Below, piece after piece: positions 10,190-41,115 of a stretch of DNA of 64,000 bases (positions within the stretch are counted from its first letter, which is position 1; the number at the start of each line of letters is the position of its first letter). The notes under the pieces are model-generated. The model was not told the origin of the DNA, did no database searches, and saw nothing but the letters and a program-made list of their open reading frames with translations. Origin of the DNA: Promethearchaeota archaeon (lineage in GTDB: Archaea > Asgardarchaeota > Heimdallarchaeia > Hodarchaeales > Hodarchaeaceae); contig JBHLPQ010000001.1 in the NCBI GenBank assembly GCA_048939265.1, positions 6,726 through 70,725 on the forward strand, read 5' to 3'. A program made the position numbers and the translations under genes.

Positions 10190-10339
10190 AAATCAGGTCA
10201 CCAAAAATATACGTCAATACTGACATATTTATATGAATAAGTAATATAAATCAGAAAAGAAATTAAAAGTAATATTGGTATTAAATCGTCTACTCATCTA
10301 GATTAGTTAATAGAAGGACAAGAAAGACCAAAAAACATT

Positions 10340-10867: not shown

Positions 10868-10919
10868 TCATTTACATATAACTGATGAGATTAATATAGT
10901 AAAGACTAAGTGAGACTTT

Positions 10920-12668: not shown

Positions 12669-12710
12669 TCTTAATTAAACCGTACTGATGATCTTTAAGA
12701 TAAATTAGAA

Positions 12711-13778: not shown

Positions 13779-13806
13779 GAAGAGTTTTTACTAGGTGTAA
13801 ATGTGA

Positions 13807-21099: not shown

Positions 21100-21141
21100 A
21101 AATGATTTAGATTTTCTCTCGTTTTTCTCATTTCTTTACTT

Positions 21142-23384: not shown

Positions 23385-23487
23385 ATTAGATTAAGCCAAA
23401 TAACTACGAAAAACCATACAATGATGGATGTGTGATCCGTCAGCTGAGATTATTTATCATGAAGTTTACTTACTCTAATTTAAGAGG

Positions 23488-24516
23488 TTATTCCTTTTCC
23501 TCAGTGGCAGCATCTGTTTTTTCTTGTATACTGTCTGGCATCTCAAAATCGAATGGTGGTTGTGTAGTGATAATAACACCATCTTCCTTAGTAATAATGA
23601 ATGTATGTTCATATTGGGCAACAAAACTCCCTTTATCATCTGCTAAAGGAGGATATGCAATAACTCCACCACCATTTAGGAGTTCACGTATTGCAAACCG
23701 GACACGCGCCTGATTAAACTGATCGTATGAGGTTAACCACCGTTCAGCAAAAGGCAAAGTTTTATATTTCTTATAGGTTGTTGAATAAATCTTTCTTGAC
23801 ACTGGATTCCGTAATGGTACGCGTTTTGGAAGCAGCATATAGATATACTTTGTACCAACGACCTCATGAACGCTCCCAGTCCCAGATGATGCAAAAGTTT
23901 CTAATGCGTAAGCCTCTCCAACCTCTAATGCCCCCTCTGCAGGATCATAGGGGGAACTAATATTAGGTAATCGTTTATCACCATGTAATTCATATCTGCC
24001 AAGTTTGTGGCCTGTTAATTCCCGAATAGGGCGATATCCATATCCAGTAATTGCTTCTTCAATTCGCTTACCAATTAACGAAGGTAATGTTCCTGCCTGA
24101 ATAATCTCTATTGCAGCTTTAAATCCTTCTTCTGCGGCTTTCTTCAAGTTTTTAAGATCAGGAGAAAGAATTATTGTCACAGCAGTATCCGCAATATAGC
24201 CATTACAGTGAACACCAATATCTAATTTGACACTCCCTTCATCAGGGATCACAGTCTCATCCCCATGAGGACTAGAATAATGAGCTGCAATGTTGTTAAT
24301 TGATACATTGGTTGGGAAACCTAAACCATCTGCTCCTTTTTCTAATATCAACCCCTCAGCAGTTTCACATATCCGGATAATGGGTACACCAGGTTTAATC
24401 AATTCTTTCACTTGGTTTAAAACTTCATATCCGATCTGTCCAGCCTTGCGGTAAAAGTAAAATTTCTCTTCTTCTGTTATTCCTTCTTCCGAGGTCCAAT
24501 CAGACATACCATTCAC
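23488..24516 (-). CDS. map: Methionine aminopeptidase, type 2 (archaeal/eukaryotic class) with an N-terminal extension
   Basis: GFPTNVSINNIAAHYSSP, KLDIGVHCNGYIADTAVTI and C-terminal blocks match the MetAP2 pita-bread signature. 342 aa. Confidence 0.85.
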   Translation of the reverse strand: MNGMSDWTSEEGITEEEKFYFYRKAGQIGYEVLNQVKELIKPGVPIIRICETAEGLILEKGADGLGFPTNVSINNIAAHYSSPHGDETVIPDEGSVKLDIGVHCNGYIADTAVTIILSPDLKNLKKAAEEGFKAAIEIIQAGTLPSLIGKRIEEAITGYGYRPIRELTGHKLGRYELHGDKRLPNISSPYDPAEGALEVGEAYALETFASSGTGSVHEVVGTKYIYMLLPKRVPLRNPVSRKIYSTTYKKYKTLPFAERWLTSYDQFNQARVRFAIRELLNGGGVIAYPPLADDKGSFVAQYEHTFIITKEDGVIITTQPPFDFEMPDSIQEKTDAATEEKE

Positions 24517-24670
24517 CTGTTTTCATTCTAGGTTTTGTTTCTAGGTCATACTCGTTGTTTTTACAAACAAATAAATAAACGATGTTTCGAACTTATCTCA
24601 CACAGATTAAAGGTTTAACGAGAAGATAAAAGATCCGATCATAATCGATACCCTCTCTGAGGAGCAACTT

Positions 24671-25894
24671 ATGTCTGATGAAAACATTCTAGTCAGAGTC
24701 AAACAGATTCTGACACAAAAATATTGTACTTCTGCTGATGAAACTGTGGAGACAATTGGTCAATGTGATAACCTAGGGGAAGCATTAGTTTCAACAGATT
24801 TTCCCGAAAAAGATTTTTATATTCGCATCCTCCAACACCTCCGACTTTTCTACAATTCCGAGTTTATGATCTACAGTGATCGAATCAAAAAAGCCCTTTC
24901 ATCATACCAAAAATTACAGACTGGAATACTAGAAACTCAAACGCAATATCCCGATCTATATTCACAACTCCAGTATGACATTGATCGGCTTGTTTTACGT
25001 ATAGATGCTCGAATCCAAGAGACCCGCGCTCGGATAGCTGAAGCTGAAAATGATATGGTTCAAGCAGATGTATTATATGTTGAGACAATTAATCGTTATA
25101 ATAATGAATTAACGCTAGAGCAGAATAAAAGCGATTATGACCATTATTTCAATTCTTTAGGGATTATCTTCTTCATCACAGGTCACCTATACCGATTGCG
25201 AGGAAAAAATTCTTCTAACGCTGAAGATCTATACCTTGCTTTAAGAAATTTGAAAAAAGCACAGTTTCTAGGGCATTCTGACAGTGAAATTTTGAATCAG
25301 ACCTTTGAGGATATTAAGACTATAACCGTAGGAAAATTAGAACACCAAGCAGAATTGCTCTTTACTCAAGGACTGACAAATTCAGAAGCAGATCAATTTG
25401 ATATAGCAAAAGCCAATTATCAGAAGTCAGCTCAACTGTATCATTCATTAAACAAGCTTCAGAAGAGCGTGGAGTATGAACTCCAAGAACAAATTCAAAA
25501 TTCTTCATATTATGAAGCAACTGCGAAAGCATTTATGATACAAGATAACAATGAGCAAGCTGCCCTTCAATTCTCCTATGCAAACCAAACTTTACAAAAA
25601 GTCCTTCAAAAGCTACCCAGTGATTCCCTGAGACAGTCCTTTCAACCCCAAATCAGATACTTTCAAGCAATGCAGCTATTTTGTCAAGCTGTTACAGAGT
25701 ATGACAACATGAGTCCAGAAGCGATAGACCATTTTACAGAAGCGCGAGAGAAGCTTGAGGAAGCAAAAGAGATGGCTGATGAGAATCAAAATGTTCCATT
25801 ATCCAAAGGTTGTACTGAAGCATTAAACAAACTCGATTCGTATCAAGAAATTGCAGGGATTATGTTCCAAGAAACTGACAGCGATGAGTCTTAA
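24671..25894 (+). CDS. Hypothetical all-alpha protein (407 aa), Gln/Glu/Leu-rich
   Basis: Long ORF with helical repeat-like composition. No enzymatic motif recognised. Confidence 0.4.
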   Translation: MSDENILVRVKQILTQKYCTSADETVETIGQCDNLGEALVSTDFPEKDFYIRILQHLRLFYNSEFMIYSDRIKKALSSYQKLQTGILETQTQYPDLYSQLQYDIDRLVLRIDARIQETRARIAEAENDMVQADVLYVETINRYNNELTLEQNKSDYDHYFNSLGIIFFITGHLYRLRGKNSSNAEDLYLALRNLKKAQFLGHSDSEILNQTFEDIKTITVGKLEHQAELLFTQGLTNSEADQFDIAKANYQKSAQLYHSLNKLQKSVEYELQEQIQNSSYYEATAKAFMIQDNNEQAALQFSYANQTLQKVLQKLPSDSLRQSFQPQIRYFQAMQLFCQAVTEYDNMSPEAIDHFTEAREKLEEAKEMADENQNVPLSKGCTEALNKLDSYQEIAGIMFQETDSDES

Positions 25895-26208
25895 TCTGAA
25901 TGTAATTGGGATAAGATTACGTAAGCTTCTAGTAAAGGTATCGATAGTTCTTGTGCCAGCTCTTCTGGATGAATTTTAGGGTTTTTAGGGAGGATTTTTT
26001 GGCGTGTCCACGCCAAATTAGCTGCAAAACCTGGGATCTCGCCCATCAAAGGCTCTAATAATGCGATTAGTTGTTCTTTACTTAGTTGTTCCAATAAATA
26101 TGGAGATTTTTTTCGTTCGATGATTCTAGGTTTCTTCTTCTGAAGTTTTGACGATACACTCGGTTTTTTCTCCCTTTTTTTGGGGATAAAATTAGAGAGA
26201 TCAGACAT
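25891..26208 (-). CDS. Small basic hypothetical protein (105 aa), possibly DNA/RNA binding
   Basis: Lys/Arg-rich N-terminus (KKREKKPSVSSKLQKKKPRIIERKK) then a helical region. Convergent 4-nt stop overlap with the upstream + gene. Confidence 0.35.
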   Translation of the reverse strand: MSDLSNFIPKKREKKPSVSSKLQKKKPRIIERKKSPYLLEQLSKEQLIALLEPLMGEIPGFAANLAWTRQKILPKNPKIHPEELAQELSIPLLEAYVILSQLHSD

Positions 26209-26302
26209 TCAACCATGTCACCATAGAAATCCGACTCCTAATGTATTAAAAATTTTTTGTGGAAAGTGAAACCTGAGATTTGATACCGGAAAATGGAATA
26301 TT

Positions 26303-26632
26303 TTGGAGATCATTCTAGAGATGTCAAAAAAACAAACTCAAAAAAAAGGTGGGGTCAGGCGACTTGTGTTGGATGTGTTAAAACTCCATGATCCATCGAT
26401 AGTTTCCTTTGCAACTGCTCTGGAGCAGGTTGCTGGAGTAACTGCAGTAAATTGTACCCTTGTTGAAATAGATGCGAAAACAGAGAATCTTAAGGTTGTA
26501 CTCGAAGGATCTGATATGGATTTTAACCTCATTTCTGAAACAATAACCGAATTACATGGCTCTATACACTCAATCGATCAAGTAGTCAGTGGAGCTCGGT
26601 TTGTTGAAGCTGTTGAAACCCCACAAGATTAA
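26303..26632 (+). CDS. DUF211-family protein (COG1888-like archaeal small protein)
   Basis: GVRRLVLDVLKLHDPSIVSFATALEQVAGVTAVNCTLVEIDAKTENLKVVLEGSDMDFNLI..HGSIHSIDQVV closely follows the DUF211 consensus (RRLVLDVLKPHEPSI...GV.GVNI.V.E.D.ETE.LKI..EG.DIDF..I...IE..GG.IHSIDEV). Confidence 0.65.
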   Translation: MEIILEMSKKQTQKKGGVRRLVLDVLKLHDPSIVSFATALEQVAGVTAVNCTLVEIDAKTENLKVVLEGSDMDFNLISETITELHGSIHSIDQVVSGARFVEAVETPQD

Positions 26633-26760
26633 CTGCACCTTTCAGTCAGTATTCCCCTAATTACAACCTACCATAGAAAGGAAAATGGTATCCGTCCTAT
26701 ATGGGAAGAGACACCCTCAATCTAGGGAATAATTAGACGCAGTCAGTTTAATTACAAGAA

Positions 26761-27072
26761 TCAGTCGCGAAGCTCAATAGACGTTTCAGGAAATCCTTCA
26801 TCAACTAGAATTGGTGAAATCGATCGAAGAAAATTACCCTGAAGCTCAATTCGGCCATCTTTCGTTGTTCCACCTGTTGCTAAACTCTTCTTCAGACGTT
26901 TAGACAGGCTTCTAAGATCGATATCTTTAGACAGTCCATCAATGACCGTCACCTCACGTCCCCATTTTCGTTTTTCAATAAAAACCCGAATTGACGTTTG
27001 TTCTTCTCGTGCAATATCAGAGCAAGCGCATAACTCTTCTGGCAGACCGCAGGTCTTGCAAATACTACCCAT
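26761..27072 (-). CDS. sui1: Translation initiation factor aSUI1 (eIF1 homolog)
   Basis: ICKTCGLPEELCACSDIAREEQ..IRVFIEKRKWGREVTVIDGL.....DLRSLSKRLKKSLATGGTTKDGRIELQGNF matches the archaeal SUI1 zinc-ribbon + SUI1 fold. Confidence 0.9.
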   Translation of the reverse strand: MGSICKTCGLPEELCACSDIAREEQTSIRVFIEKRKWGREVTVIDGLSKDIDLRSLSKRLKKSLATGGTTKDGRIELQGNFLRSISPILVDEGFPETSIELRD

Positions 27073-27196
27073 TTTTATTTATTAACCTCAGATTTTCAGT
27101 TTGCTAAATAATTAATTAGCTGATCCATCTTTATCTTGAATAAAATATAAACCTATCGAATAATTGCAAAATGTCGAAAACATCTATTTGGTTGTT

Positions 27197-27343
27197 TCAA
27201 TCAGTTTTCAACCTTTTGATAATTGGAGGACGCTTTTTCAACAATATTCGGTGGCCACAAATAATGCACCGAATTCCAGGTAAAGTTTCTAATTCCGCAG
27301 GGTCAATCTCCTGGTGGCATTTTTGACATAGATATGTCGTCAT
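27197..27343 (-). CDS. rpoP: DNA-directed RNA polymerase subunit P (Rpo12/RpoP, RPABC4 homolog), 48 aa. Not in the supplied ORF table because it is under 60 aa.
   Basis: Manual translation: MTTYLCQKCHQEIDPAELETLPGIRCIICGHRILLKKRPPIIKRLKTD. It has a C-x2-C...C-x2-C zinc ribbon with the RCPYCG.RIL.K.RP pattern characteristic of Rpo12, and sits between SUI1 and an ABC operon. Confidence 0.7.
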   Translation of the reverse strand: MTTYLCQKCHQEIDPAELETLPGIRCIICGHRILLKKRPPIIKRLKTD

Positions 27344-27609
27344 ATTTTCAGCCTTCAATCCTTAAGAAGTCTCATTTTGATTTCTCTTATAAAAAGCGCT
27401 TAAAAGACAACTTGATAAAATTTGCTATAGTAGGAGTATCTTTTTAGAGGACAAAAGATCAATTTAGGTGAATACCTCAACCTTGATAGAATATCTTATA
27501 AACTAAAGGGAGTAAATTTTGAATATTATAATACAAAAGTGGTGAATTGGGCGACTTTGAATGGATTCAGCCGTTTTGAATGTGCATGAACATCATTGGG
27601 GTATAACTC

Positions 27610-30501
27610 ATGGGAAAAACGCGGATTCTTAAAGGAAGAATTCGCTTACTTCTGCAATTTTCCAGAATTAATCTGCATATATCTGCCATTACACTCATAG
27701 GTTTAACTATTGCGTTATCAGTCGTTTCAGCGTCGTTTATCTATTTAGAATCTAATCAAGCTAGTTACTATCTGAAAAGAATCCAAGATCTACGAGAAAA
27801 GAATTACATTATTTATGAAATTTCGAATGAGACTTCACCTTATCTTCATTACAATGTCCTCCCTCTTATTCAAGAATATATTGAAGAAGAACTCAATCAA
27901 TCTGGCCTAGGAGAGACCTTTCAACCTCATTCGTTATATCCACTGTTCCACTTGGGTAATTACATTCGATTCTTGAACCAAAGATCAAGCACTCTAATTG
28001 GAATAGATCTGAATGAAACAATCCTTTCTGACTGTGTTAATGGAAGCAAATTACCAGTAGAAGAAAACGAAGTAATATTATATTCTTCTACTGAGGGATT
28101 ACCATTGGAAATAGGCAACTACTTCAATATTTCTAAATCTTATAGAGATTCTTCGGATAATTATCAGGAATATAATTTTTCACTAAAAATATCTGGTTTA
28201 ATTACATCTACTTCAATTAATCAGACCTCTCCTCTAAAAGAAATCTTTGATGAGGAATATGAGGACCTTATTCTAATCACAGATTATCACAGATTTTACA
28301 CCTTAATTCAAACTATGAACTCTGAGTTAGAAGCACTAATAGCGCAGGATAGTATATTTGCAGAAGAAAATTTCTTTATGTTTCTAAAATATTTTTTCTA
28401 CCTTGATTTAACATCAATTGATCAAAAAAACGTCATTCAAATAATGGATGATTTATTGAAGTACTACAAAGCACTTTGGTATGTACAACCTTTTGAGGGA
28501 AATTTATATTTCAACAGAAATAGCCATGTTTTTTATAAAATAGAAGAGGCTACTACCAATTTTGATAGATTCTATTACTTGTTTTTAATTCTAAGTGTAC
28601 CAGCTTTCATACTTGCATTTTTATTAGTCAACTTCTCACTCAGTCTTATCAATGAAAGACGAAAGAGATCTTTTACATTACTAAAAATGAGAGGAGTCTC
28701 TACCAGTTTTATTTTTTTAATTTTAATCCTCGAGACTTTTATCTTAGCACTATTATCTTCTTTTTTGTCGATCATTTTAGGTATTGCTGTTTTTATTGTA
28801 CTGTCCTCAACAACCGGATTCCTTCTCTTTGATGCTAATAGACTACCTAAAGCAATGGTTATATCCCCGACAACTATAAGCTTCCTCATCATTTTCGGTC
28901 TAGCATTTACAATATTGTCTCATTTTAAAGCCACCTTTAAATTAGCTAGATCGAAAGTGGTTGAACTTGAGCGAGTAGCAAGTAAGAAGAGGAGAAGAAA
29001 GCCAAAAATGTGGGGAGGAAATCTTGACATAAATCTGTTGATAGTCGGAATCCTTGGATTTATTGTGTTTTATTCTCTTATGACAATTCTTCTGAACTTA
29101 GATCAACGAGAAAATGAAGTTTGGATGACAATCATTATTCTGATTATAGTTGTCATGGTATTTTGCCAATTAGCAATTCTCATTGGAGGTATTTTCACGT
29201 TTAACAGAATTATTCCAATTATTCTTCATCATCTAGGAAATTATTCATGGAAAAAAGATTGGCGCTCATTGGCTGTGGCTACCAGAAATTTATCGGTGTC
29301 TAGAATAACTAAACATGTCACCCTTTTGATAGCATATACTATTAGTTTTCTTATGATACTATCAATACTTCCTTCGACGATGTACAACAATGTTGTTGAT
29401 CATGCGTATTATGGGGTAGGCTGTGATATCAAGATATACACTGGAGCAAACGAGAATATCAATATGACGGTGGTCTCTAATTTAACGGCTGATTTAAATT
29501 CAATTCAAGGACTAGCAGCTACAGGTGTCACACGCCTTCGATATAACTTAATTCAAAAGGTTGAAGAGGATTATGAATATACTGTGCATCATAATTTCAT
29601 TGGTATTGATCCAAATTTTCATCAAATAGCGTACTGGCGAGATTATTATGATGATTCATCACTTCAGAAAATGGTCACATTACTACATAATTCCTCGGCC
29701 AAGTATCCAATTATTATTGATTCATTTTCAGCAAGAAGAGAGGAACTTGAAAACCTAGGAACATATTCTATAATTTCCAATAGTTCCGAATTAATAGAAT
29801 TGACTGTTGTAGAAATAAGTAACTGTTGGCCGACATGGTGGACTGGTGAAAATGTACTTAGCATGATAACTAAGAGATCGCTCATAGAGAATTTGTCTCT
29901 ACTTCTTGGAGGGGAGGATAACTACATGAATGCCGATATATGGTGTAAAGTTTCACCTAGTTATGATAAAGATGATGTGATTGATCAAGTAATAAATGTC
30001 ACATCTTTTTATGGTATCTCACAAGATGACATCGAAAATACAATTAAAAAAGTACAAATCGATCCTGAATCCTTATCTGATATTGCTTTTTGGATTATTA
30101 CTAATTTCAACTATTTAGTATCTTTATCAATAATCTTAATCATGATAATCCTCTTCACTACGGTTAGGATTGCAAGTCACACTACAGAAATTGGTTTAAG
30201 TAGAGCATTAGGAATGAAAACTAAACAAGTGTTTCTATTAATGTTTACAGAACCACTAATTCTTTTTCTAATCAGTGGAATCCCTGGGATCATATTTGGT
30301 TCATTTTTCACCTTCTTCCTCTTACAATGGACAAATCCACTTCTCACTTTAGGAGCGGGCCCCCCATTTGTGGTATATCCTAATTATTTTTCAGTATTTT
30401 TAATCTATAGTTCTATTTTTGTTGTAACTTTGCTAAGTGGCTTACTAGCATCGATAATTGCTTCTAGAGCGAACATTTCTAAAATTTTAAAGGTGGAGTA
30501 A
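27610..30501 (+). CDS. ABC transporter permease, fused double FtsX-domain (MacB/BceB-like) with two large extracytoplasmic domains
   Basis: 963 aa. TM1, a ~300-aa extracytoplasmic region, a 3-TM FtsX block, a second ~270-aa extracytoplasmic region, then a C-terminal 4-TM FtsX block (…GLSRALGMKTKQV… motif). Confidence 0.8.
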   Translation: MGKTRILKGRIRLLLQFSRINLHISAITLIGLTIALSVVSASFIYLESNQASYYLKRIQDLREKNYIIYEISNETSPYLHYNVLPLIQEYIEEELNQSGLGETFQPHSLYPLFHLGNYIRFLNQRSSTLIGIDLNETILSDCVNGSKLPVEENEVILYSSTEGLPLEIGNYFNISKSYRDSSDNYQEYNFSLKISGLITSTSINQTSPLKEIFDEEYEDLILITDYHRFYTLIQTMNSELEALIAQDSIFAEENFFMFLKYFFYLDLTSIDQKNVIQIMDDLLKYYKALWYVQPFEGNLYFNRNSHVFYKIEEATTNFDRFYYLFLILSVPAFILAFLLVNFSLSLINERRKRSFTLLKMRGVSTSFIFLILILETFILALLSSFLSIILGIAVFIVLSSTTGFLLFDANRLPKAMVISPTTISFLIIFGLAFTILSHFKATFKLARSKVVELERVASKKRRRKPKMWGGNLDINLLIVGILGFIVFYSLMTILLNLDQRENEVWMTIIILIIVVMVFCQLAILIGGIFTFNRIIPIILHHLGNYSWKKDWRSLAVATRNLSVSRITKHVTLLIAYTISFLMILSILPSTMYNNVVDHAYYGVGCDIKIYTGANENINMTVVSNLTADLNSIQGLAATGVTRLRYNLIQKVEEDYEYTVHHNFIGIDPNFHQIAYWRDYYDDSSLQKMVTLLHNSSAKYPIIIDSFSARREELENLGTYSIISNSSELIELTVVEISNCWPTWWTGENVLSMITKRSLIENLSLLLGGEDNYMNADIWCKVSPSYDKDDVIDQVINVTSFYGISQDDIENTIKKVQIDPESLSDIAFWIITNFNYLVSLSIILIMIILFTTVRIASHTTEIGLSRALGMKTKQVFLLMFTEPLILFLISGIPGIIFGSFFTFFLLQWTNPLLTLGAGPPFVVYPNYFSVFLIYSSIFVVTLLSGLLASIIASRANISKILKVE

Positions 30502-30509
30502 TGATTTAA

Positions 30510-31388
30510 GTGCTAATTGAATGTAAGGATCTTATCAAAATCTACCCCTCACCAGTAGAGGGACTGATGTTCCCTGCTTTACGGGGATTAGATCTATCTA
30601 TAGAAAAAGGAGAACTAATCTCAATAATTGGTCCTTCAGGAGCAGGAAAATCAACTCTTCTTCGTCTCATCAGTGGATTTGATCTCCCTAGTTCGGGTGA
30701 AATTTGGTTTGATGGTCGCTTACTTAATCAGTTTTCTGAAGAGGAGCTGTATGATCATCGAAAAAAGGTTGGGATCATGTACCAATCTCCAAGAGATAAT
30801 TTAGTATGGGGATTATCAGCCATTGACAATGTTTTGTTCCCTATGCGATATTCAGGCAAGTTTGGTGAAAACCAAAAACAAAAAGCACAGGAATTACTAG
30901 AAAAAGTAGGATTATCAGGAAAAAGTAAACGAAAACCAACCCAACTATCTGGAGGAGAACAACAAAGAGTAGCTATCGCAACTGCATTAGCAAATGACCC
31001 TCTTGTCTTGTTAGCAGACGAACCGACTGGAGAACTGGATAGCACCACTACAAGTAGTATAATTGATTACTTTAAGGAATTAAAGAACAATATGGGATTA
31101 ACGATATGTGTGGTGACTCACGATAGACGTTTCTCTAAATTAACCGATAAGACTTACAAGATTCAGGATGGTCGATTGACCACTCTTCAGGTGGGCTACA
31201 TTAGAGAACAGATTTTTGAACAAACTGAAGAGACAGCTATCATCGATTCGCAAGGGAATGTAAGACTCCCTGTAGAAGTTCTAGAACTTCTTAAAGGAAT
31301 ATCTTCTGTGAGAATTGTGATTAAAGAAAATAAAATCGAATTAATCCCAATAGTAACAGAACTGGAACGTGATAAGGAGGGGAATTAA
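30510..31388 (+). CDS. ABC transporter ATP-binding protein with a C-terminal AbrB/SpoVT-like (swapped-hairpin) extension
   Basis: Walker [11 protein letters not shown]-loop, signature LSGGEQQRVAIA, Walker B LLADEPTGELD, H-loop VTHD. The C-terminal ~50 aa (IDSQGNVRLPVEVLELLKGISSVRIVIKENKIELIPI) resembles AbrB/MazE DNA-binding/regulatory domains. Confidence 0.85.
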   Translation: MLIECKDLIKIYPSPVEGLMFPALRGLDLSIEKGELISIIGPSGAGKSTLLRLISGFDLPSSGEIWFDGRLLNQFSEEELYDHRKKVGIMYQSPRDNLVWGLSAIDNVLFPMRYSGKFGENQKQKAQELLEKVGLSGKSKRKPTQLSGGEQQRVAIATALANDPLVLLADEPTGELDSTTTSSIIDYFKELKNNMGLTICVVTHDRRFSKLTDKTYKIQDGRLTTLQVGYIREQIFEQTEETAIIDSQGNVRLPVEVLELLKGISSVRIVIKENKIELIPIVTELERDKEGN

Positions 31389-31391
31389 AGA

Positions 31392-32075
31392 TTGGGGAAA
31401 TCTGAAGTCTTATACCATTTAGAAAGCTTACAAAGATTTTATACCAGTAAAGCTGAAATAGTTAAAGCTATTGATGGTATTGATCTTGATATACATGTGG
31501 GCGATTTTATTGCCATTCTTGGCCCTTCTGGCTCCGGAAAAACCACTTTTTTGAATATTCTTGCAGGTTTGGATAAACCAACGGGAGGAAACCTAATTTT
31601 TGATAATACAGATATTTCCACTCTTAATGATTCTGAACTTTGTGATATTAGACGGTTTGACATCGGGATTGTTTTTCAATTTTTTAATTTACACCCCTCT
31701 TTTACAGCACAGGAGAATATAGAGTACCCAATGATGATAGCGGATGTTCCATACAAAGAACGAGAAATAAAAGCAGCAGATCTTCTTAAACAAATGAACT
31801 TGTATGATAAAAAGGATAATTACCCAATCGAAATGTCGGGTGGTGAAAAACAAAGGGTGGGAATTGCTCGAGCGTTGGCAAACGATCCTAGAGTACTCAT
31901 TGCTGATGAACCGACTGGTGATTTAGATTCAGAAAATGCAAAGCAGATTATTGAGTTACTACTGGACATCAATAACCGAGGGACAACTATCGTCATGGTG
32001 ACGCATGATGAATCCCTCTTATCAGAAAAAATGTCCATTCTGTCTCTTGTAGATGGAAAAATAATTAATCCTTAA
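31392..32075 (+). CDS. ABC transporter ATP-binding protein (second NBD of the + operon)
   Basis: GPSGSGKTT, MSGGEKQRVGIARALANDPRVLIADEPTGDLD, MVTHDES. Confidence 0.9.
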   Translation: MGKSEVLYHLESLQRFYTSKAEIVKAIDGIDLDIHVGDFIAILGPSGSGKTTFLNILAGLDKPTGGNLIFDNTDISTLNDSELCDIRRFDIGIVFQFFNLHPSFTAQENIEYPMMIADVPYKEREIKAADLLKQMNLYDKKDNYPIEMSGGEKQRVGIARALANDPRVLIADEPTGDLDSENAKQIIELLLDINNRGTTIVMVTHDESLLSEKMSILSLVDGKIINP

Positions 32076-32192
32076 TGCTAAATTACCAGAGATTATTTTG
32101 CTACTTCTGCAGTGATTTCTCTCATATAGAGCTCCTAAAATACCACTTGATAAAATTTACCATATATTGATGATTTCATTAATAAACCAATA

Positions 32193-32951
32193 TCAGATTG
32201 TTTCCAACATAACATCTTGAATTCCTCTTTCATAGAGAAATTGAGCTCTAGAAATTTGAGGAATATCCTTTGTTGCGATTCCATCTTCCAGTAGTAAAAC
32301 TCGATCTCCATCCTGAGGAATATTGTAATCATGAGTTGAAATTATGAGGAGACCATTGATTTCTTTGGCTTTTTGACGAAGTAATCTCATCAATTCACAG
32401 CCAGTTTCAATATCTAGAGCCCCTGTTGGTTCATCAGCTAGAATAATCAAAGGTGAGGTAATAAGAGCTCTGGCAATCGCAACTCGTTGTTTTTCTCCTC
32501 GAGACAGTTCATCTGTATACATATCTATTTTCTCTCCTAACCCAACTTCTTTCAACAAACTTGCTATTTGGTTAGTATTTGAATTTCGGGATACTTTATT
32601 GATCATGAATTTTAGTTCTAAAGTTTCACGGCAAGTTAATCCTAAATGCAACTCAAAGAATTGAAAAATTATCCCCAGGTTATCTCGACGAAATTCTGTC
32701 CTTTCCTCTTCAGTCATTCTGAATATATTCTGATTATTTATCTTTACATTTCCTTCTGTTGGCTCTTCAAGGCCTGCAAGCAAGTTCAAAATAGTCGATT
32801 TTCCTGCACCGCTTGGTCCCATGATGATAATTGTTTCACCAAGAGAAGCACTGAAAGAAATTCCCTTTAGAATTGTAGCTGGGATGCTCCCCCCAATAGA
32901 GTATTGTTTTTTCAAATTCTTTACTTGAAGTATTTGATTTATAGTTTTCAT
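32193..32951 (-). CDS. ABC transporter ATP-binding protein with a degenerate signature motif (LSRGE)
   Basis: [24 protein letters not shown] (the second G of LSGGQ is replaced by R), [16 protein letters not shown]. Confidence 0.9.
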
Positions 32952-32973
32952 TGCTAACCCCTACAGGCACTTT

Positions 32974-33687
32974 TCAATTATTCTGTCCGTTAATCATGAT
33001 CTCTTTCATTTTACCTTCTTTCATAATGAAACAGTGATCGGTCTTCTTAACCATTCTCAAGTCATGTGTAACCATGACAATAGTTTTTTCCAGATTGTCA
33101 CAGGATGTACGGAGGTAGTTAACGATTTTAAGTGCGTTGACAGTATCAAGTTGACTGGTTGGTTCGTCCAGAATGAGTAAATCTGGATTATTAGCTAAAG
33201 CAATAGCAAGACTCAACCTTTGGAGTTCCCCACCAGATAATTGAAAAGGTTTCCTCGAAGCTTTTGTTTCCAGATCTACCTGTTTAAGTAAGGTTTTGAC
33301 CCTTGTCTTCCCCTCTTGTAAATTGGGATGAGTTGAACATAAGACTATTGGAAAAAAAACGTTATCAAAAACACTAAGATCCCATATAACATTCTCCCGA
33401 GGATTTTGTAACATTAAGCCAATATGTTTTCTGTAATAAAAGAGTTTTTCTTTTGTTGATAGTTCATTAATGAGATGATCTTCTATTTTAATAAATCCAG
33501 CGGATGGTTCCAACAGGCCTGTGATAATCATTAACAGTGTAGTTTTACCACAACCACTAGGCCCTAAAATGCTGATAAATTCTCCTTTATGCACCGTGAG
33601 ATGTATTCCTCTTAAGGTAGCTTTCTTTACTTTGGATTTTTGTGGATATATCTTAATAATATCCTCACAGTGTAAATATGGTTGCAT
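32974..33687 (-). CDS. ABC transporter ATP-binding protein
   Basis: GPSGCGKTT, LSGGELQRLSLAIALANNPDLLILDEPTSQLD, MVTHD. Confidence 0.9.
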   Translation of the reverse strand: MQPYLHCEDIIKIYPQKSKVKKATLRGIHLTVHKGEFISILGPSGCGKTTLLMIITGLLEPSAGFIKIEDHLINELSTKEKLFYYRKHIGLMLQNPRENVIWDLSVFDNVFFPIVLCSTHPNLQEGKTRVKTLLKQVDLETKASRKPFQLSGGELQRLSLAIALANNPDLLILDEPTSQLDTVNALKIVNYLRTSCDNLEKTIVMVTHDLRMVKKTDHCFIMKEGKMKEIMINGQNN

Positions 33688-33690
33688 TTC

Positions 33691-36558
33691 TTAATCCTCC
33701 TGTTCATATTGTTTTAATAACAAACCAGTTGAATATCTCTGCTGTATAATATTTGAAGGAATAAGTGAAATGATCACGAAAATGAGAAACCAGATGAAAT
33801 ATGGAATGAATGCATTGAATGGAAGAATGACTGGGGGATATAACCCACTTTTTTGCAGCCATAAAATCGATTGAGAGGAAAAATAAATTATACAATATAA
33901 GATTCCAGTGCATGTACCAATAATTAATGCTGTAAAAATTACAAAAACACTTTCTATCAGGGTAACTAAAAAGATTTCCTGTTTCTTCACTCCTAACGCT
34001 CGTTCAAGAGCATGTTCTCTTGTCCGTCGATTCTGTTGAAACATACCAAGAAGTAAGACGCAGCCACAAGCGAGTACAAGAGAGACAAGAAGAACAACTT
34101 GCTGAGAATCTATAAACTGATCCCAAGATCGATTAACTTTCATATTCATTATTTCTTGAGATGTCCACGATATTTCTGCTAAATAATCTTCTTTCAAAAT
34201 TTGAAGTACTTCTGGAGAGATTTCTGAATCAGTATTGATTAAAAAATAATGTTTCTTTACAATTGAACTTGGTTCATCCGATATTGCCTCTAAACCCTGA
34301 AGGAAATCTTTATGGATAATCATAGCTTGATCCCCAGGGGACCTGGCAATTAATGGATAAATTTTAAATGAAGAAACCACTGTGACATTCGCTATAGGAT
34401 GAATAAAATATTCAAAATGAGCTGAAAAGTTTTCTGCCAATAATTGGAGATGATATAAACTATCAATTTTAAGATCCTGTAAGAAAAGAAATTGTTTACT
34501 GACACTCACCTTGGATTTATTGGTCAGAATGGCTTTTTGGAAAGCAGCCATGGAGGGGGTAAACTCTAACTGCCAATGATTGTATCCAACCTCAAAAAAA
34601 GTTTCAGGATCAATACCTAATAAAGCAATGGATGAACTACTAGAGATCATTCCGAAATCATCCCATTCCGCGTCAAAATCCATATTAGCAACCGTTATTT
34701 TTGTAAACACACTTTGTGAGGGAAGGTTTTCTGTTAAAAAGGTTGTTAAGGCTGCTTCCTTTGTTTCAGGAAATCCAATTCTATAATCAGCTCCAACAAC
34801 AAATCTGGCTTGCTCTATCATATGAAAGTTAGCGGAAGCATGTGACGTTAAAAGACAAAAGGAATAGAAGACAAGTAAAGTAAGAAATAACCAAGTATCT
34901 GAAAATGATTTACGAAAACGGTTAATGTTTTTTAGAGCAAAAGTAGGGAGGCTGTTTCCCCTTTTCCACAAAGAATTTGACAAGAATATCACAAAACTCG
35001 AGAATATGAATCTTAATGAGAAGAGGAGTCCAATTGTTAGACATACCAATGAGATTGTAACTAAATATTGTGTGAATTCCTTTAGCCCTACCCATATATC
35101 TAATACTGGAAGAAATATTTTAGGAATATCAAGTAAGTTCACAATGAAAGAAAAAGCAATAATGATGATCCCAAACAATATCATCTTCAAAGCCCAAGAG
35201 TGTATAGTTACCTCTTCGCTTTTTCTGAAACTGGGTAAATCCTTCCCCAAGTAAACTCTAACTATATTTCCCGCTATTTTTCCATAAACCATTCCGTTTA
35301 TCATGATCGAAATGAACAATACATAAAGAAACCAATTGTTAATGTTGAGGATTAATAACGTTGTTGTACTCATGAATGAAATTAAAAAAACGCTTAAGAT
35401 TACACCTAGTAATCCTCCCAGTAGGAGTGTTCCCAATATACTCACTCCTACTTCAAAGACAAGTAGTACAAAGATTTGTTTTAATGAGAACCCTCGTATA
35501 AATAATGATTGATTTCGCTTTAATCGAGAAAAGTTAGTATTATCTACAACATAATTCGTGAAGTAAAGAGAAATGATTATCACTGGCAATGAAAGGAATA
35601 AAAATTCAAAAAAACGAGTTTCCCATAATCTCTGAAAATCATTCAATTTTCTCTCTAAATAATCTTCACCCCAAGATAATCCTTGTATATTCCGTTTGAA
35701 GAGTTTTAGTCGCGATAAATATAATCCCCGATCTTGAGCTTTCAACTTATCCACATTGAATAATAAAAAGAATTCGATGTAACCTCTTCTTTCTTTTTTT
35801 GGATTAGAGGAAGAGATCCCAATTTTTTTTACAAGAGATGAATAATCATTTTTCCTAGTAATAAGACCATACCGATAACCGATATTGATACCTGTAATTC
35901 CCCTAAGCTGTTTAAGGTATTCATAGTACGATTCACGGGTTGGAAATTGATTTGATTGGAAGAATGGAAGGATCCCCACGATTTTTAGGGGAAAAGAAGA
36001 ATTTGGATATATTGCAGAAAAAGAGTAGTTTGAATTGATTGTATACTCATTCTTTTCTCTTTCAGGTATCATCAAGATCGTTTCATTAGCGTTTTGGGGC
36101 AGCCTGCTTTCAGGAAGAAGTAATGTTTCAAGGACACTTGCTTTATCATCCTCAAAAAAATATGTGTTCCCAAGGAGATGACTATCCCCCCAGGTGGTTG
36201 TATTCTGATTTCTACTAGATATCCCAGGTTCTATCCACGATCCCTGCAGAAAATTTTGTAAGTCAGTGTCATTTAGTTGGATTTCGATATTTCTGATGAT
36301 TTGATTGAGAGATGCCATTTCAAAGGCTAGATAATTTGCTGAAAAACTAATTTCTAATTTAATATGGTATCTGTATTCTTCAGATAACTCTCTTCGTGTG
36401 GCCATAAATAATGCATCACTATTTGAATCTAAAATAATGCAAACAGAAGTAACTACTGCCATAATTAAAGCTAAAGAGAAAATAATAGGGAACAAATTCC
36501 TCCTATTTCCTTTAAGTAATTTAATATTCAAAAGGAGTTTCTCAACCACCATAATCAC
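33691..36558 (-). CDS. ABC transporter permease, fused double FtsX-domain (paralog of 27610..30501)
   Basis: 955 aa with the same topology as the + strand permease: N-terminal TM, large extracytoplasmic domain, FtsX 3-TM block, second extracytoplasmic domain, C-terminal FtsX block (ERALGVKKQEI motif). Confidence 0.8.
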   Translation of the reverse strand: MIMVVEKLLLNIKLLKGNRRNLFPIIFSLALIMAVVTSVCIILDSNSDALFMATRRELSEEYRYHIKLEISFSANYLAFEMASLNQIIRNIEIQLNDTDLQNFLQGSWIEPGISSRNQNTTTWGDSHLLGNTYFFEDDKASVLETLLLPESRLPQNANETILMIPEREKNEYTINSNYSFSAIYPNSSFPLKIVGILPFFQSNQFPTRESYYEYLKQLRGITGINIGYRYGLITRKNDYSSLVKKIGISSSNPKKERRGYIEFFLLFNVDKLKAQDRGLYLSRLKLFKRNIQGLSWGEDYLERKLNDFQRLWETRFFEFLFLSLPVIIISLYFTNYVVDNTNFSRLKRNQSLFIRGFSLKQIFVLLVFEVGVSILGTLLLGGLLGVILSVFLISFMSTTTLLILNINNWFLYVLFISIMINGMVYGKIAGNIVRVYLGKDLPSFRKSEEVTIHSWALKMILFGIIIIAFSFIVNLLDIPKIFLPVLDIWVGLKEFTQYLVTISLVCLTIGLLFSLRFIFSSFVIFLSNSLWKRGNSLPTFALKNINRFRKSFSDTWLFLTLLVFYSFCLLTSHASANFHMIEQARFVVGADYRIGFPETKEAALTTFLTENLPSQSVFTKITVANMDFDAEWDDFGMISSSSSIALLGIDPETFFEVGYNHWQLEFTPSMAAFQKAILTNKSKVSVSKQFLFLQDLKIDSLYHLQLLAENFSAHFEYFIHPIANVTVVSSFKIYPLIARSPGDQAMIIHKDFLQGLEAISDEPSSIVKKHYFLINTDSEISPEVLQILKEDYLAEISWTSQEIMNMKVNRSWDQFIDSQQVVLLVSLVLACGCVLLLGMFQQNRRTREHALERALGVKKQEIFLVTLIESVFVIFTALIIGTCTGILYCIIYFSSQSILWLQKSGLYPPVILPFNAFIPYFIWFLIFVIISLIPSNIIQQRYSTGLLLKQYEQED

Positions 36559-36769
36559 CCTCTAAGTTGAAACCACCGTTTTCTGTTCTTCTTAATACAC
36601 CTCTTTAATAATCCATCATCACTTCAATTATACCTTTAGTCCATTGCTTACATAATGATGTTCACCTGTGAACATGTCCTATTTTTTAACCCTATCCATT
36701 TTTCATGTAAAAAATAGTTAATCCTTAGTTGTTAATATTTTCCCTTCTAAGAAGGCTATTCTACTACTT

Positions 36770-37183
36770 CTACAGTGAACGTTTGAGATTCGACTTAACA
36801 AAATCTACAATGTCCTTGGTATCAGTTCCAGGACCAAAAATTCCCTTGATTCCAATTTCGTTTAACTTTGGAACGTCTACATCAGGAATGATCCCACCTG
36901 CGACAACAAGAGTATCGCTTATCATCTCATTCTGTTTGAGTAATTCAATTACTTTCGGAAATAACGCCATGTGAGATCCACTTAAACTGGAAAGTCCAAT
37001 GACATCAACATCCTCTTGAAGTGCTGCTTCAACTATCTGCTCTGGACTTTTATGCAGTCCAGTATAAATGACCTCCATTCCTGCATCTCTCAAAGCTCGT
37101 GCAACGACCTTTACACCTCGGTCGTGTCCATCTAATCCAGGTTTTGCTAATAGAACTCTAATTTTTCGGGTCATTATTTTCAC
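36770..37183 (-). CDS. mcmB: Methylmalonyl-CoA mutase, B12-binding (small) subunit
   Basis: DxHxxG cobalamin-binding motif ([12 protein letters not shown]) and a Rossmann-like B12-binding domain, about 137 aa. It lies directly downstream of the large subunit. Confidence 0.9.
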
Positions 37184-37192
37184 CTGAAAATA

Positions 37193-38908
37193 TCAGATCA
37201 ATTGATCTCCCTTCCATTCTCCAAAGACCTCTCTTAAAACATCACATATCTCACCAACAGAGGCATAAGCTTTCACAGCTTTCAGAATAGGAGGCATCAA
37301 ATTGCCAGCGCCTTCAGCAGCCTCACGTACCTCAACCAACGCGTCATTTACCGCCTTATTGTCTCGTTCCTTTTTGGTTTGGTGCAGACGCGCTATCTGT
37401 CGTTCTGCTATTTCTTCTCCAATTTGAAGGAGAGGAACCTTGATTTCTTCTTCCGAGCCATATTCATTAACTCCTACTATTACCCGTTGGTTTTCCTCTA
37501 TTTCTTTTTGATATAGATATGCTGCATTCGCTATTTCTTGTTGAAAAAATCCCTTTTCTATCGCAGGTATGACCCCACCCAACTGTTCAATTTTGGAAAA
37601 ATATTCTTCAGTTTGTTCTTCCATTTCATTTGTCAATGCTTCTACAAAATAGCTTCCTGCTAAAGGATCAATCGTATTTGTTACACCACTTTCGTGAGCA
37701 AGAATCTGTTGAGTTCGTAGTGCAATTTCAACTGCTTCCTCACTAGGTAAAGCTAATGCTTCATCTAGCGAATTTGTGTGGAGAGATTGAGTTCCACCCA
37801 ATACTGCTGCGAGTGCTTGGATAGTAGTACGTACAACATTATTATAAGGCTGTTGAGCAGTTAAGGAGCATCCTGCAGTCTGAGTATGAAAGCGTAACCA
37901 CATTGAACGGGATTTTTTTGGCTGATATTTCTTAATGTGACGAGCCCAGATACGACGGGCAGCACGATACTTAGCTATTTCTTCAAACAGGTCATTATGT
38001 GAATTAAAAAAGAAAGATAACCGAGGAGCAAAGTCATCGATATCCATACCAGCTTCTACGGCCCATTTCACATATTCTAGTCCATCAACTAAAGTAAAAG
38101 CAAGTTCTTGAACCGCAGTTGACCCTGCTTCGCGAATATGATATCCAGAAATAGAAATAGTATTCCAACGAGGAACGTGTTCTGAACAATACTTAATAAT
38201 ATCCACTATAATTCGCATCGATGGTTTTGGAGGAAATATATACGATTTTTGAGCAATAAATTCTTTAAGAATGTCATTTTGAATGGTTCCACCAATTTGA
38301 TCGGGCCTAACCCCTTGTTTTTCTGCTACTGCAATGTACATAGCGAGTAATATCGCTGCAGGAGCATTAATTGTCATTGATGTGGTCACCTGATTGAGGG
38401 GAATTCCATCAAACAAGATCTCCATGTCTTTTAATGTATCAATAGCCACACCTAACTTGCCAACCTCTCCAAGGGACATGGGATGGTCAGATTCACGACC
38501 ATAAATCGTAGGGAGATGAAAAGCCACACTCAATCCTGTCATTCCGTGCTCTAGAAGAAACTTAAATCTTTGATTTGTCTCTTCAGCGCCTCCAAATCCC
38601 GCAAATTGACGCATGGTCCATAAACGACCCCGATACATAGTCGGTTGAACGCCTCGTGTGAATGGAAACATACTTGGATATCCTAAGTCATCTTGGTAAC
38701 CCCAATTAGAAGGCAGATCTGTAGGATCATATATTCGATTAATAGGTTGACTAGAGGTTGTCATAAACTTCTGTAACCGCTCTGAATGTTTTTTTGTAGC
38801 GTTCTTGTAGATCGATTCCCATTCTTTGCGTTTTCGTTTGATATCATCTAAAGAATTGGCTTTTTCTTCCATTGGAGTTCTTCCACTCTTTGTTGTATTC
38901 GAAGTCAA
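37193..38908 (-). CDS. mcmA: Methylmalonyl-CoA mutase, large (substrate-binding TIM-barrel) subunit
   Basis: 571 aa. Blocks such as [33 protein letters not shown] and the [12 protein letters not shown]-like region match the MCM N-terminal domain. Split-subunit archaeal arrangement. Confidence 0.9.
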
Positions 38909-39450
38909 TACTCAACACCTTTTCGGGCTAATATCTGCTTTTGATATGGATGTTTATGTTCACAAATCTCTGTATAATAATCAGCAAGATCAATTAATAC
39001 ATTAGGCGCGTCTCTGCCTGTTAAAACCAACTCAAGATTTTTAGGTTTTTGCTTGATGATATCAATTACCTGTTTTTCAGATATTAATTTAAAGTCCAAA
39101 GCAACGTTAATCTCATCTAAAATCAAAATATCCCATTTCTCTTCTGTAATGGCTAATTTAGCACGATCTAAAGCAGCTTTAGCTTCATCTAAATCAATTT
39201 TCTTCGGATTATCCTTATTGACAAACTCAGGTGTCCCATACTGAAGAATGGTTATTTCAGGAATAGTCTGTATAACTCTTAATTCCCCATAATCCCACCC
39301 TTTTTTCATAAATTGGATAATCAATGACCGAAATCCATGTCCTGCAGCTCGAAGTGCCAATCCTAAAGCAGATGTCGTCTTCCCTTTCCCATTACCAGAA
39401 ATAACGTGAATTAATCCGAGCTGAGATGTTTCAATGCTTTCCTCATTCAT
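38905..39450 (-). CDS. cobO: Cob(I)alamin adenosyltransferase (CobA/CobO/BtuR family)
   Basis: [33 protein letters not shown]-loop signature of the CobA family. Its stop overlaps the mcmA start by 4 nt, so it is co-operonic with the mutase. Confidence 0.85.
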
Positions 39451-39591
39451 TATATCGACCCTAAATCTACTTGTTGGAATGTTTAAAGGAATGATACTCG
39501 CTTCATTAAATCATTCAATTCCTCTCTACCAAAAGATAAGAGATTTATTTCCTTCTCTTTTCTTTGAAAATAGGCTTTATTCTTGAAGCTC

Positions 39592-39605
39592 TAAATAAAT
39601 AACCT
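39592..39605 (+). promoter_or_regulatory. Archaeal TATA box (TAAATAAATAACC) about 30 nt upstream of tRNA-His
   Basis: An A/T box-A-like motif centred about 30 nt upstream of the predicted tRNA 5' end. Confidence 0.4.
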
Positions 39606-39629
39606 CTTAAAAGGTCTTTCAATTACTCT

Positions 39630-39730
39630 GGCCGACGTAGGATAGATACGAGCAGCTGACTGCTTGTAGTACAATGGTAGTCTCGGAGGTTGTGGCCCTT
39701 CATGTCCGGGTTCGATTCCCGGTGTCGGCC
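39630..39730 (+). tRNA. tRNA-His(GUG) with an encoded G-1 and a ~27-nt insertion (non-canonical intron) in the D-arm region. No encoded CCA.
   Basis: Manual fold: G-1 then acceptor GCCGACG/UGUCGGC, discriminator C73 (the G-1:C73 pair is diagnostic of His), anticodon stem GGAGG/CCUUC with loop UUGUGGC (anticodon GUG), T-arm CCGGG-UUCGAUU-CCCGG. The 5' half between the acceptor and anticodon stems is about 27 nt too long and contains a GCAGC/GCUGC hairpin, consistent with a BHB intron. Confidence 0.6.
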
Positions 39731-39901
39731 CTCACTTTTAACACAAGATTTTATATATAAATCACTGCTACAATCACCCTCAGCTTTATTTTGTCAGTTA
39801 TGCATCTCTCTTCGGATTTCTTGGTAAAAATAAAAATGAAGATACCTTTTTTCTATTAAAGGATCCTTACTTAGAGTTGCCATTAAAGAGCCTGAAGATT
39901 A

Positions 39902-41044: not shown

Positions 41045-41115
41045 ATATTGAGAAGAATCTCGCTCATAATTTAATTTAAATTATAAAATTTTCAGCTTCC
41101 TTTAAATCATTCTAC

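Follow-up and report, generated by a model that had tools for sequence, protein, structure and literature searches.

Two convergent type VII ABC operons of an Asgard archaeon, each with one double-FtsX permease gene and two different ATPase genes

Introduction

To our knowledge, all characterised ABC (ATP-binding cassette) systems of type VII (MacB, LolCDE, FtsEX, YbbAP, BceAB, HrtBA and YtrEF) work with two copies of one ATPase, even when their membrane part is asymmetric. What kind of machine is encoded, then, by an operon in which a single large permease gene is followed by two different ATPase genes, and why should two such operons lie tail to tail? These questions are raised by a stretch of 64,000 nucleotides from a Promethearchaeota archaeon of the Hodarchaeales (GenBank assembly GCA_048939265.1, contig JBHLPQ010000001.1, positions 6,726 to 70,725), here called the window. 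All coordinates refer to the window unless a related locus is named. A first, sequence-only reading of it had proposed two convergent operons, each with a permease of about 960 amino acids (aa) and two non-identical genes for nucleotide-binding domains (NBDs).

The analysis that followed leads to the view that each operon probably encodes one complete type VII mechanotransmission machine with an NBD1:NBD2 ATPase heterodimer, which would work at the outer face of the membrane rather than import, and in an adaptive role. The fold class and the fused double-FtsX permease are known features. What is new is the presence of two different ATPase genes per type VII system, in a family that appears to be Asgard-specific. 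If this two-ATPase lineage is truly conserved, it would be the first type VII case with genetically distinguishable ATP sites.

Operon layout and the two ATPases

All six open reading frames (ORFs) were recovered where the first reading had placed them. Operon A occupies 27610-32075 on the plus strand and operon B 32193-36558 on the minus strand. They converge tail to tail across a spacer of 117 bp, and the gaps between genes within either operon measure 3-22 bp. The genes and their main parts are the following, with transmembrane (TM) helices and extracytoplasmic domains (ECDs) numbered from the N-terminus.

27610..30501, plus strand: PermA, 963 aa, YbbP-like type VII permease with 10 TM helices (4+2+4) and two ECDs
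27760..28563, plus strand: ECD1 of PermA, aa ~51-318, in the TM1-TM2 interval; the most rapidly diverging part
29395..30078, plus strand: ECD2 of PermA, aa ~596-823, in the TM7-TM8 interval
30510..31388, plus strand: A-NBD1, 292 aa, ABC ATPase of the putatively family-specific NBD1 lineage; catalytic motifs all canonical; Pfam ABC_tran 1.7e-35
31215..31388, plus strand: C-terminal extension of A-NBD1, ~57 aa
31392..32075, plus strand: A-NBD2, 227 aa, ABC ATPase of an apparently more generic type VII lineage; motifs all canonical
32193..32951, minus strand: B-NBD2, 252 aa, ABC ATPase with an LSRGE signature and an STHD switch region
32493..32507, minus strand: LSRGE signature motif of B-NBD2, placed from the translation
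32974..33687, minus strand: B-NBD1, 237 aa, NBD1-lineage ABC ATPase that lacks the C-terminal extension
33691..36558, minus strand: PermB, 955 aa, paralogous 10-TM double-FtsX permease

Pfam detects ABC_tran in all four NBDs and FtsX in two stretches of PermA and one of PermB. Together with the ORFs and BLASTP, these matches agree with the gene content first proposed. By BLASTP, the two ATPases of one operon are clearly different (A-NBD1 and A-NBD2 are 38% identical, B-NBD1 and B-NBD2 29%). The corresponding ATPases of the two operons share 43% (A-NBD1 and B-NBD1) and 39% (A-NBD2 and B-NBD2). At 29-38% identity the partners within an operon are old paralogs, and the concern that they might be near-identical recent duplicates does not apply.

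The same holds for the operons as wholes. Since PermA and PermB are just 22% identical over their full length (BLASTP, E 1.5e-12), operons A and B are ancient paralogs and not recent copies. A recent local duplication of one operon was considered and is ruled out by the identity of the permeases, which ranges from 19 to 22% between the operons. It is also contradicted by the ATPases, each of which resembles the corresponding ATPase of the other operon more closely than the one encoded beside it. The first reading's phrase that the whole arrangement is duplicated suggests a local event, which these identities do not support.

Among NCBIfam models, LolD, FtsE, DevA, MacB and YbbA rank at the top for all four NBDs, all under their equivalog cut-offs; the LolD model, for instance, gives 171-219 bits, where 307.75 would be required. 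Top matches among PDB sequences include LolD, MJ0796, FtsE, YtrE, MacB and YbbA. Walker A, the D-E of Walker B, the D-loop and the switch His are intact in all four proteins. The signatures of operon A are canonical (LSGGE and MSGGE), and B-NBD2 carries LSRGE. This signature occurs together with STHD in all three B-type NBD2 proteins, namely B-NBD2 and its orthologs at the related loci L007 and L010. Its presence in both examined orthologs makes the deviant signature a trait that B-type NBD2 proteins conserve. The first reading had compared it with ABC systems that have one non-hydrolytic site. The signature itself is real and conserved; the comparison goes no further, as the other hallmarks of such a site, loss of the Walker B catalytic Glu or of the switch His, were found in none of the four NBDs, and both sites of operon A are fully canonical. 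That the ATP sites of system B differ from each other in function is nevertheless plausible from the motifs.

In a neighbour-joining tree of the ATPases of eight loci, NBD1 and NBD2 form separate groups, each of which holds A-type, B-type and third-type members. When more members and two outgroup ATPases were included, the NBD1 clade received 65% bootstrap; it also contains the ATPases of the single-NBD loci L012 and L017, as well as the N-terminal of the two NBDs in a fused NBD-NBD protein. In this enlarged tree, the ATPase of an ordinary MacB_PCD-type Asgard system nests within the NBD2 sequences. Because of this nesting, and because the monophyly of NBD2 collapses, NBD1 appears to be the ATPase that is particular to the family, and NBD2 a type VII ATPase of a generic kind.

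NBD1 is further marked by an extension of about 55-65 aa after the ATPase, with the pattern G..P.E..I..P. It is conserved in A-type NBD1 and in the single NBD of L017, separates the two NBDs of the fused protein (L013 7831-9552, middle part) and has been lost in B-type NBD1. The extension of A-NBD1 gives weak Pfam MazE_antitoxin matches (E 0.01-0.07), and hhalign against AbrB reaches just 8.8% probability. Its predicted model shows a beta-beta-alpha-beta-beta pattern at a low-confidence predicted local distance difference test (pLDDT) score of about 60, and no meaningful match was found among PDB sequences. The motif recalls swapped-hairpin domains, and the extension is possibly AbrB/MazE-like.

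Architecture and fold of the permease

According to hydropathy, PermA and PermB each have 10 TM segments, with a basic cytoplasmic linker before TM5 and two big loops of about 230-270 aa, at TM1-2 (about 270 aa) and at TM7-8 (about 235 aa). Type VII systems are recognised by an FtsX-type module of four TM helices with an ECD between the first two, and this module is present. The layout that defines YbbAP-like systems, a single 10-TM (4+2+4) permease with two ECDs at TM1-2 and TM7-8, is present as well. The internal duplication of FtsX is visible at the profile level. With a profile of the family's N-half, residues 347-454 align with residues 853-960 of the C-half (hhalign probability 95.7%, E 1e-8), a region that covers the coupling helix, TM3 and TM4. 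BLASTP finds no significant similarity between the halves. The duplication therefore appears to be real and very old, and the proposal that each permease is a built-in pseudo-heterodimer of two diverged FtsX halves is supported. The coupling helix of the C-half is canonical, with E-I-G-x-S-R-A-L-G-M-K, and that of the N-half is degenerate, with R-R-K-x-x-x-x-L-K-M-R-G.

The predicted model of PermA finds its best structural match in Escherichia coli YbbP and its second best in BceB, followed by MacB, YtrF, FtsX and LolC/E; HrtB is matched as well. The ECDs in this model resemble the periplasmic domains of LolC/E and are candidates for the MacB/Lol Porter+Sabre fold. Pfam MacB_PCD is not detectable in the permease sequences, and the nearest solved relative is just 11-12% identical; a close homolog that had already been characterised was thus not found. 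The assignment of both operons to the MacB/FtsX (type VII) class is upheld on both components, by ATPases of LolD/FtsE/MacB type and by a permease fold that matches YbbP, BceB, MacB and LolCE. The fused double-FtsX permease with two ECDs had also been regarded as unusual. This does not hold, as YbbP has the same published architecture, with 10 helices, two periplasmic domains at TM1-2 and TM7-8 and a TM5-6 linker (PMC12646458), and BceB is a version with one external domain (PMC5985334). Fused double-FtsX permeases of this kind were therefore already known.

Relatives and gene order in Asgard archaea

An exhaustive search with a hidden Markov model (HMM) returned 1247 cluster representatives at E<=1e-30. 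At least 150 representatives of the family lie under E 1e-70, most of them full-length matches of 920-990 aa. A word-indexed search had given 7 PermA-type and 3 PermB-type matches, and the impression of a tiny family that it created was overturned by the exhaustive search. Every named member is from Asgard archaea (Hodarchaeales, Odinarchaeota, Heimdallarchaeota, Hermodarchaeota or 'Promethearchaeota'), which suggests that the permease family is Asgard-specific. Relatives carry several paralogs of the system per genome. In the Asgard cell envelope, itself little known, the family seems to form a large component that has gone unstudied.

The order of genes was compared across the related loci, here numbered with L, and takes these forms.

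Permease-NBD1-NBD2: window operons A and B, L002, L004, L006, L007-9, L010-11 and the contig of protein P0002
Two tandem permeases, NBD1 and NBD2: L001
Two permeases and one fused NBD-NBD of 573 aa: L013
A helix-turn-helix (HTH) gene, NBD1, NBD2 and a fused double permease of 1968 aa: L015
Permease and a single NBD: L012, L017
Fused double permease with no NBD adjacent: L016
One adjacent NBD gene, the locus ending at the contig end: L018

Two NBD modules are encoded in 11 of 14 loci, ten times as two genes and once as a fused NBD-NBD. Two loci (L012 and L017) have a single NBD, and one (L016) has none adjacent. The PermB orthologs, which are 41-44% identical to PermB, are each followed by NBD1 and NBD2. 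The combination of one permease with two NBDs, first noticed in the window, is thus a recurrent one.

Several proteins of 1950-2070 aa consist of two complete 10-TM permeases, and in other relatives two permease genes stand in tandem beside one NBD pair.

Fused double permeases: P0074 (1968 aa, Hodarchaeales, L015 3809-9715); P0075 (1952 aa, Odinarchaeota, L016); P0135, P0184 and P0208
Tandem permease genes sharing one NBD pair: L001 5025-10808; L013 2082-7877

The fused and tandem forms with one NBD pair hint at higher-order assemblies or at alternative permeases on a shared motor.

Small winged-helix/HTH proteins are encoded directly upstream of the system in some relatives (L007 7612-7887, L017 4629-4940 and L015 1206-1853). 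Those of L007 and L017 are homologous (E 8e-11). No such gene lies upstream of either window operon. Ubiquitin-system genes (UQ_con, JAB and ThiF; 6324-7491 and 11582-12442) occur near the distant single-NBD member L012 and are consistent with an Asgard origin of that contig.

A variable chromosomal slot

The position of the two operons was examined by comparison with L001, which is CP070695.1, the complete chromosome of 'Ca. Heimdallarchaeota bin6' and a close relative of the window. The features of the site are as follows.

27430..36764: variable slot between the RpoP/aIF1 flank and the methylmalonyl-CoA mutase flank
27197..27358, minus strand: RpoP (RNA polymerase subunit P), 53 aa; flank marker, outside the ABC system
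27378..27429, plus strand: left copy of a direct repeat, in the RpoP upstream region and continuous with the flank homology to L001
32113..32164, plus strand: right copy of the direct repeat, in the 117-bp spacer between the operons; 83% identical to the left copy

Window positions 21133-27429 and 36765-41557 match CP070695.1 at 80-83% DNA identity by blastn. The slot between these flanks cannot be aligned to it by blastn, apart from the NBD genes at 66%. The proteins compare with those of L001 as follows.

RpoP: 100% (48 aa compared), to an RPAB4-domain gene in the corresponding position
aIF1: 96%
Methylmalonyl-CoA mutase large subunit: 91%
Methylmalonyl-CoA mutase B12-binding subunit: 91%
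DUF211: 91%
M24 peptidase: 91%
Unnamed neighbours of 380, 407 and 105 aa: 85-86%
CobO: 82%
Unnamed, more distant neighbour of 654 aa: 69%
NBD1 and NBD2: 65%
PermA: 36% to the two L001 permeases

Within PermA, identity to L001 amounts to 22-25% in ECD1, 34-37% in ECD2 and 46-56% in the TM blocks. Between the same flanks, L001 has no B-type operon and instead carries two A-type permeases, which are 58% identical to each other, with one NBD pair. The slot is thus, as judged from these alignments, a hypervariable one inside a conserved core region. Such a location suggests a role in interactions with the environment or with other organisms.

The direct repeat, which is 52 nt long, brackets operon A exactly. 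Its 20-nt core occurs at just these two sites in the window, where 0.01 would be expected by chance. Both copies correspond to one single-copy stretch of L001 (12493-12560) that lies between the NBD2 stop and RpoP. Homology to L001 runs outward from the repeats, from the left copy towards RpoP and from the right copy towards B-NBD2, and the A-operon NBD genes match L001 in the orientation opposite to that of the flanks. On the simplest reading, operon A looks like an insertion of ~4.7 kb in the spacer upstream of RpoP that duplicated its site. The inserted operon would be inverted with respect to the A-type operon of the close relative, and operon B would sit where that A-type operon lies. In that case the RpoP promoter region would be present twice, and its duplicate, the right repeat copy, would face antisense into the 3' end of operon A.

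The two operons do converge, and this placement is specific to the lineage. A homolog 85% identical to PermA has no B operon after it, one genome carries its A-type and B-type operons on separate contigs, and the A-type operon of L004 lies between unrelated flanks. For these reasons the tail-to-tail pairing is not a conserved design.

The hypervariability of the cassette in an otherwise conserved core region, the especially fast evolution of ECD1 and the presence of several paralogs in a genome suggest an adaptive, environment-facing role rather than a housekeeping one.

Comparison with known systems

A single ATPase gene serves each of E. coli's characterised type VII systems (PMC12646458) and each of the eight in Bacillus subtilis (PMC11466899 Table 6), and a 2018 review of MacB-family organisations does not list a two-ATPase form (PMC5985334). 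In the literature search, no description was found of a type VII system with two ATPase genes, nor of this Asgard family beyond a TCDB listing. That listing goes back to a survey of Asgard transporters, in which divergent Heimdall ABC3 systems were assigned to the uncharacterised TCDB family 3.A.1.157 (PMC7997004), whose sequences also include OLS27678 and OLS27681. Entry 3.A.1.157.2 comprises the protein OLS22729, with 10 transmembrane segments (10-TMS), together with OLS22727, OLS22730 and OLS22731. Compared by listing alone, it may be the same kind of system as the Asgard operons; the paper describes neither a two-ATPase arrangement nor structure or function for it.

YbbAP(-TesA) (PDB 9GE6/9GE7/9GE8; PMC12646458) resembles the Asgard operons in its single 10-TM permease, in the positions of the ECDs and in its separate ATPase subunits. 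However, YbbP binds two copies of YbbA (2:1), whereas each Asgard operon has two different ATPase genes. The two periplasmic domains of YbbP are ~26% identical to each other, while the halves of PermA show no similarity by BLASTP. Identity between the systems is limited to 11-12%, no TesA-like esterase lies nearby and the archaeal host has neither outer membrane nor periplasm. BceAB of Firmicutes (PDB 7TCG, 8G4C) shares the 10-TM fused double-FtsX permease, the separate ATPase and an asymmetric complex. It differs in having a single large extracellular domain (TM7-8), a BceA homodimer and genetic as well as physical coupling to the histidine kinase BceS. LolCDE and MacB share the FtsX 4-TM module, the type of ATPase and perhaps the fold of the periplasmic domains, and LolCE provides a heterodimeric permease side; they differ in their separate 4-TM permeases, their ATPase homodimer and their bacterial envelope partners (LolA; MacA-TolC), which are missing in archaea.

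Two different NBDs that together form one consensus and one deviant site are found in the heterodimeric type IV exporters TM287/288, TmrAB, BmrCD and PatAB. In the B-type system, LSRGE would change the site to which NBD1 contributes its Walker A, as in these deviant-site exporters. Their TM fold is unrelated, however, and in their degenerate sites the catalytic Glu of Walker B and the switch His are usually lost (PMC7756269), whereas both are retained here. By these comparisons the Asgard operons belong to type VII and fall outside YbbAP, BceAB and LolCDE proper in ATPase composition, domain number and partners. The departure from characterised type VII systems lies in the ATPase pair, not in the fused permease. 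In such a lineage, which also includes the fused NBD-NBD version and the subgroup with a conserved deviant signature, the way in which each ATP site drives each half of the machine would become directly testable.

Proposed mechanism

In the proposed machine, a single 10-TM YbbP-like permease would offer its two coupling helices to one NBD1:NBD2 heterodimer, in a presumed 1:1:1 stoichiometry. ATP-driven closure of the NBDs would be passed through the long stalk helices TM1/2 and TM7/8 to the two putatively MacB/Lol-type ECDs; this mechanotransmission is proposed by analogy with the fold and mechanism of studied relatives. The work would be done at the outer membrane face, where a hydrophobic or amphipathic molecule might be extracted or expelled, or a surface partner actuated, and nothing would be imported. 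In the B-type system, the ATP site completed by LSRGE probably differs in function from the other one. The juxtaposition of A and B would result from the insertion of operon A into a variable chromosomal slot.

Several points count against this proposal. Heterodimerisation is deduced from gene order, paralogy and one NBD-NBD fusion alone, and two members (L012 and L017) manage with a single NBD1-type gene, so that the fold does not require a second one. The asymmetry of the coupling helices was considered as the reason for two NBDs and was dropped, as the single-NBD member L017 shows the same asymmetry. NBD2 monophyly falls to 16% bootstrap after the addition of outgroups. The PermA model was built from 11 sequences and has a pLDDT of 77.8. 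Replacement of the cassette, and not fast evolution in place, could account for the low identity to the close relative. Finally, the first reading had advised a check for lipoprotein or surface-protein substrates nearby; no partner, regulator or substrate gene was seen at the operons or in the scanned parts of the window. The role in envelope remodelling, or in the extrusion of lipids or surface proteins, that it suggested is a possibility only.

Alternative readings

A BceAB-like resistance module is an alternative that is unlikely on balance. Such a module would sense membrane-active peptides or shield a lipid carrier (dolichol or polyprenyl phosphate), with ECDs that track changing toxins. 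It would suit the rank of BceB among the structural matches, the hypervariability of the ECDs and of the entire cassette between close relatives, the several paralogs per genome and the small HTH regulators upstream in some relatives. One source even names a homolog 'antimicrobial peptide transport system permease', but this label is an automatic annotation. BceB, moreover, has one large extracellular domain and adjacent BceRS genes, and neither is found here. No BceRS-type histidine kinase or response regulator was detected in the window region or in 14 related loci, a histidine kinase being absent from every locus examined, and Asgard genomes lack the GraXSR and MprF-type peptide-resistance partners (PMC7997004).

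A more far-reaching form of the proposal is also conceivable and is regarded here as doubtful. The family would then be an Asgard-specific, rapidly diversifying class that is asymmetric throughout, with a pseudo-heterodimeric permease, an obligate NBD1:NBD2 heterodimer, a small regulatory or dimerising C-terminal domain on NBD1 and higher-order permease forms (two tandem permeases, or a 20-TM fused one, per NBD pair). Its members would act on variable beta-helix surface proteins with a C-terminal anchor, or remodel the Asgard cell surface in some other way, and would be exchanged as a cassette at chromosomal hot spots.

The beta-helix proteins lead to a narrower idea, which has a rather slim chance of being right: a mechanotransmitter in the style of FtsEX-EnvC or YbbAP-TesA, whose ECDs switch a surface protein, possibly a C-terminally anchored one of NosD type. 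Known type VII systems often act on docked partners (PMC12646458). NosD/Beta_helix proteins are encoded within 8 kb of 5 of the 11 independent related loci, as listed.

L017 8814-10490: NosD/Beta_helix gene
L007 13487-16303: NosD/Beta_helix gene
L015 13872-15326: NosD/Beta_helix gene
L002 16017-17558: NosD/Beta_helix gene
L012 1-1565: NosD/Beta_helix gene

These proteins are mutually homologous. They start with a signal or anchor at the N-terminus, and at the C-terminus they carry a TM helix with a basic tail. The gene of L017 lies directly downstream of the ATPase gene in the same orientation, with a gap of 47 bp, and that of L007 is one gene away. However, no such gene occurs near the window operons or in the scanned parts of the window, L001, L010, L013 and L016 lack it, and in L015 it is nearer to another ABC system. 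The count of 5 in 11 stands without a background rate for Asgard genomes and may reflect chance or a common class of genes. A TesA-type esterase was sought at the locus only and is absent from the neighbourhood.

It is improbable that the two ATPases do not pair at all and are used as alternating homodimers, or that one copy is redundant or regulatory. This possibility draws on the existence of single-NBD members, on the three relatives (L001, L013 and L015) in which one NBD pair serves two permease units, so that the stoichiometry is unsettled, and on the intact motifs of A-NBD1 and A-NBD2, either of which could in principle homodimerise. Yet both lineages have been kept side by side in A-type, B-type and third-type systems over deep divergence, one relative joins an NBD1-like and an NBD2-like half in a polypeptide of 573 aa, the operon spacing is tight (3-22 bp) and the conserved change of signature is confined to one lineage.

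A housekeeping function in envelope biogenesis, for example in the Lol-like extraction of lipoproteins or of surface proteins with a lipid anchor, might be read from the LolD models against which the NBDs score best, from the LolC/E-like ECDs and from the core genes around the locus (RpoP, aIF1, methylmalonyl-CoA mutase and ribosomal proteins), but it is most improbable, given LolD scores under the equivalog cut-offs, a cassette that is the least conserved part of its region (36%, against 82-100% for most flank genes), differences in gene content between close relatives, other contexts of the operon elsewhere and the lack of a LolA-like partner gene.

Neighbouring genes and other observations

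The neighbours of the two operons in the window are genes for RpoP, aIF1, DUF211, an M24 peptidase, methylmalonyl-CoA mutase, CobO, RNase III and a ribosomal protein operon. An anti-phage defence system was also considered and rejected: PADLOC matches neither permease, and the NBDs give just generic ABC-ATPase similarity. No tRNA gene was called in the window by ARAGORN, and no RNA element from Rfam is tied to the locus. A borderline Rfam tRNA match at 39667-39722, with 29.1 bits against a gathering score of 29 and no ARAGORN call, may represent part of a tRNA, or else an archaeal tRNA that is split or contains an intron.

Two further regions of the window deserve mention. An ORF of 1733 aa without a Pfam match (4988-10189) is followed at 10340-15279 by genes for a MoxR AAA ATPase, a DUF58/VWA protein and DUF4129/DUF4350 proteins; the cluster at 4988-15279 resembles a module of the MoxR-VWA type. 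At 50262-52955, a protein of 897 aa combines DUF2341 with fibronectin type III domains and is probably a surface protein.

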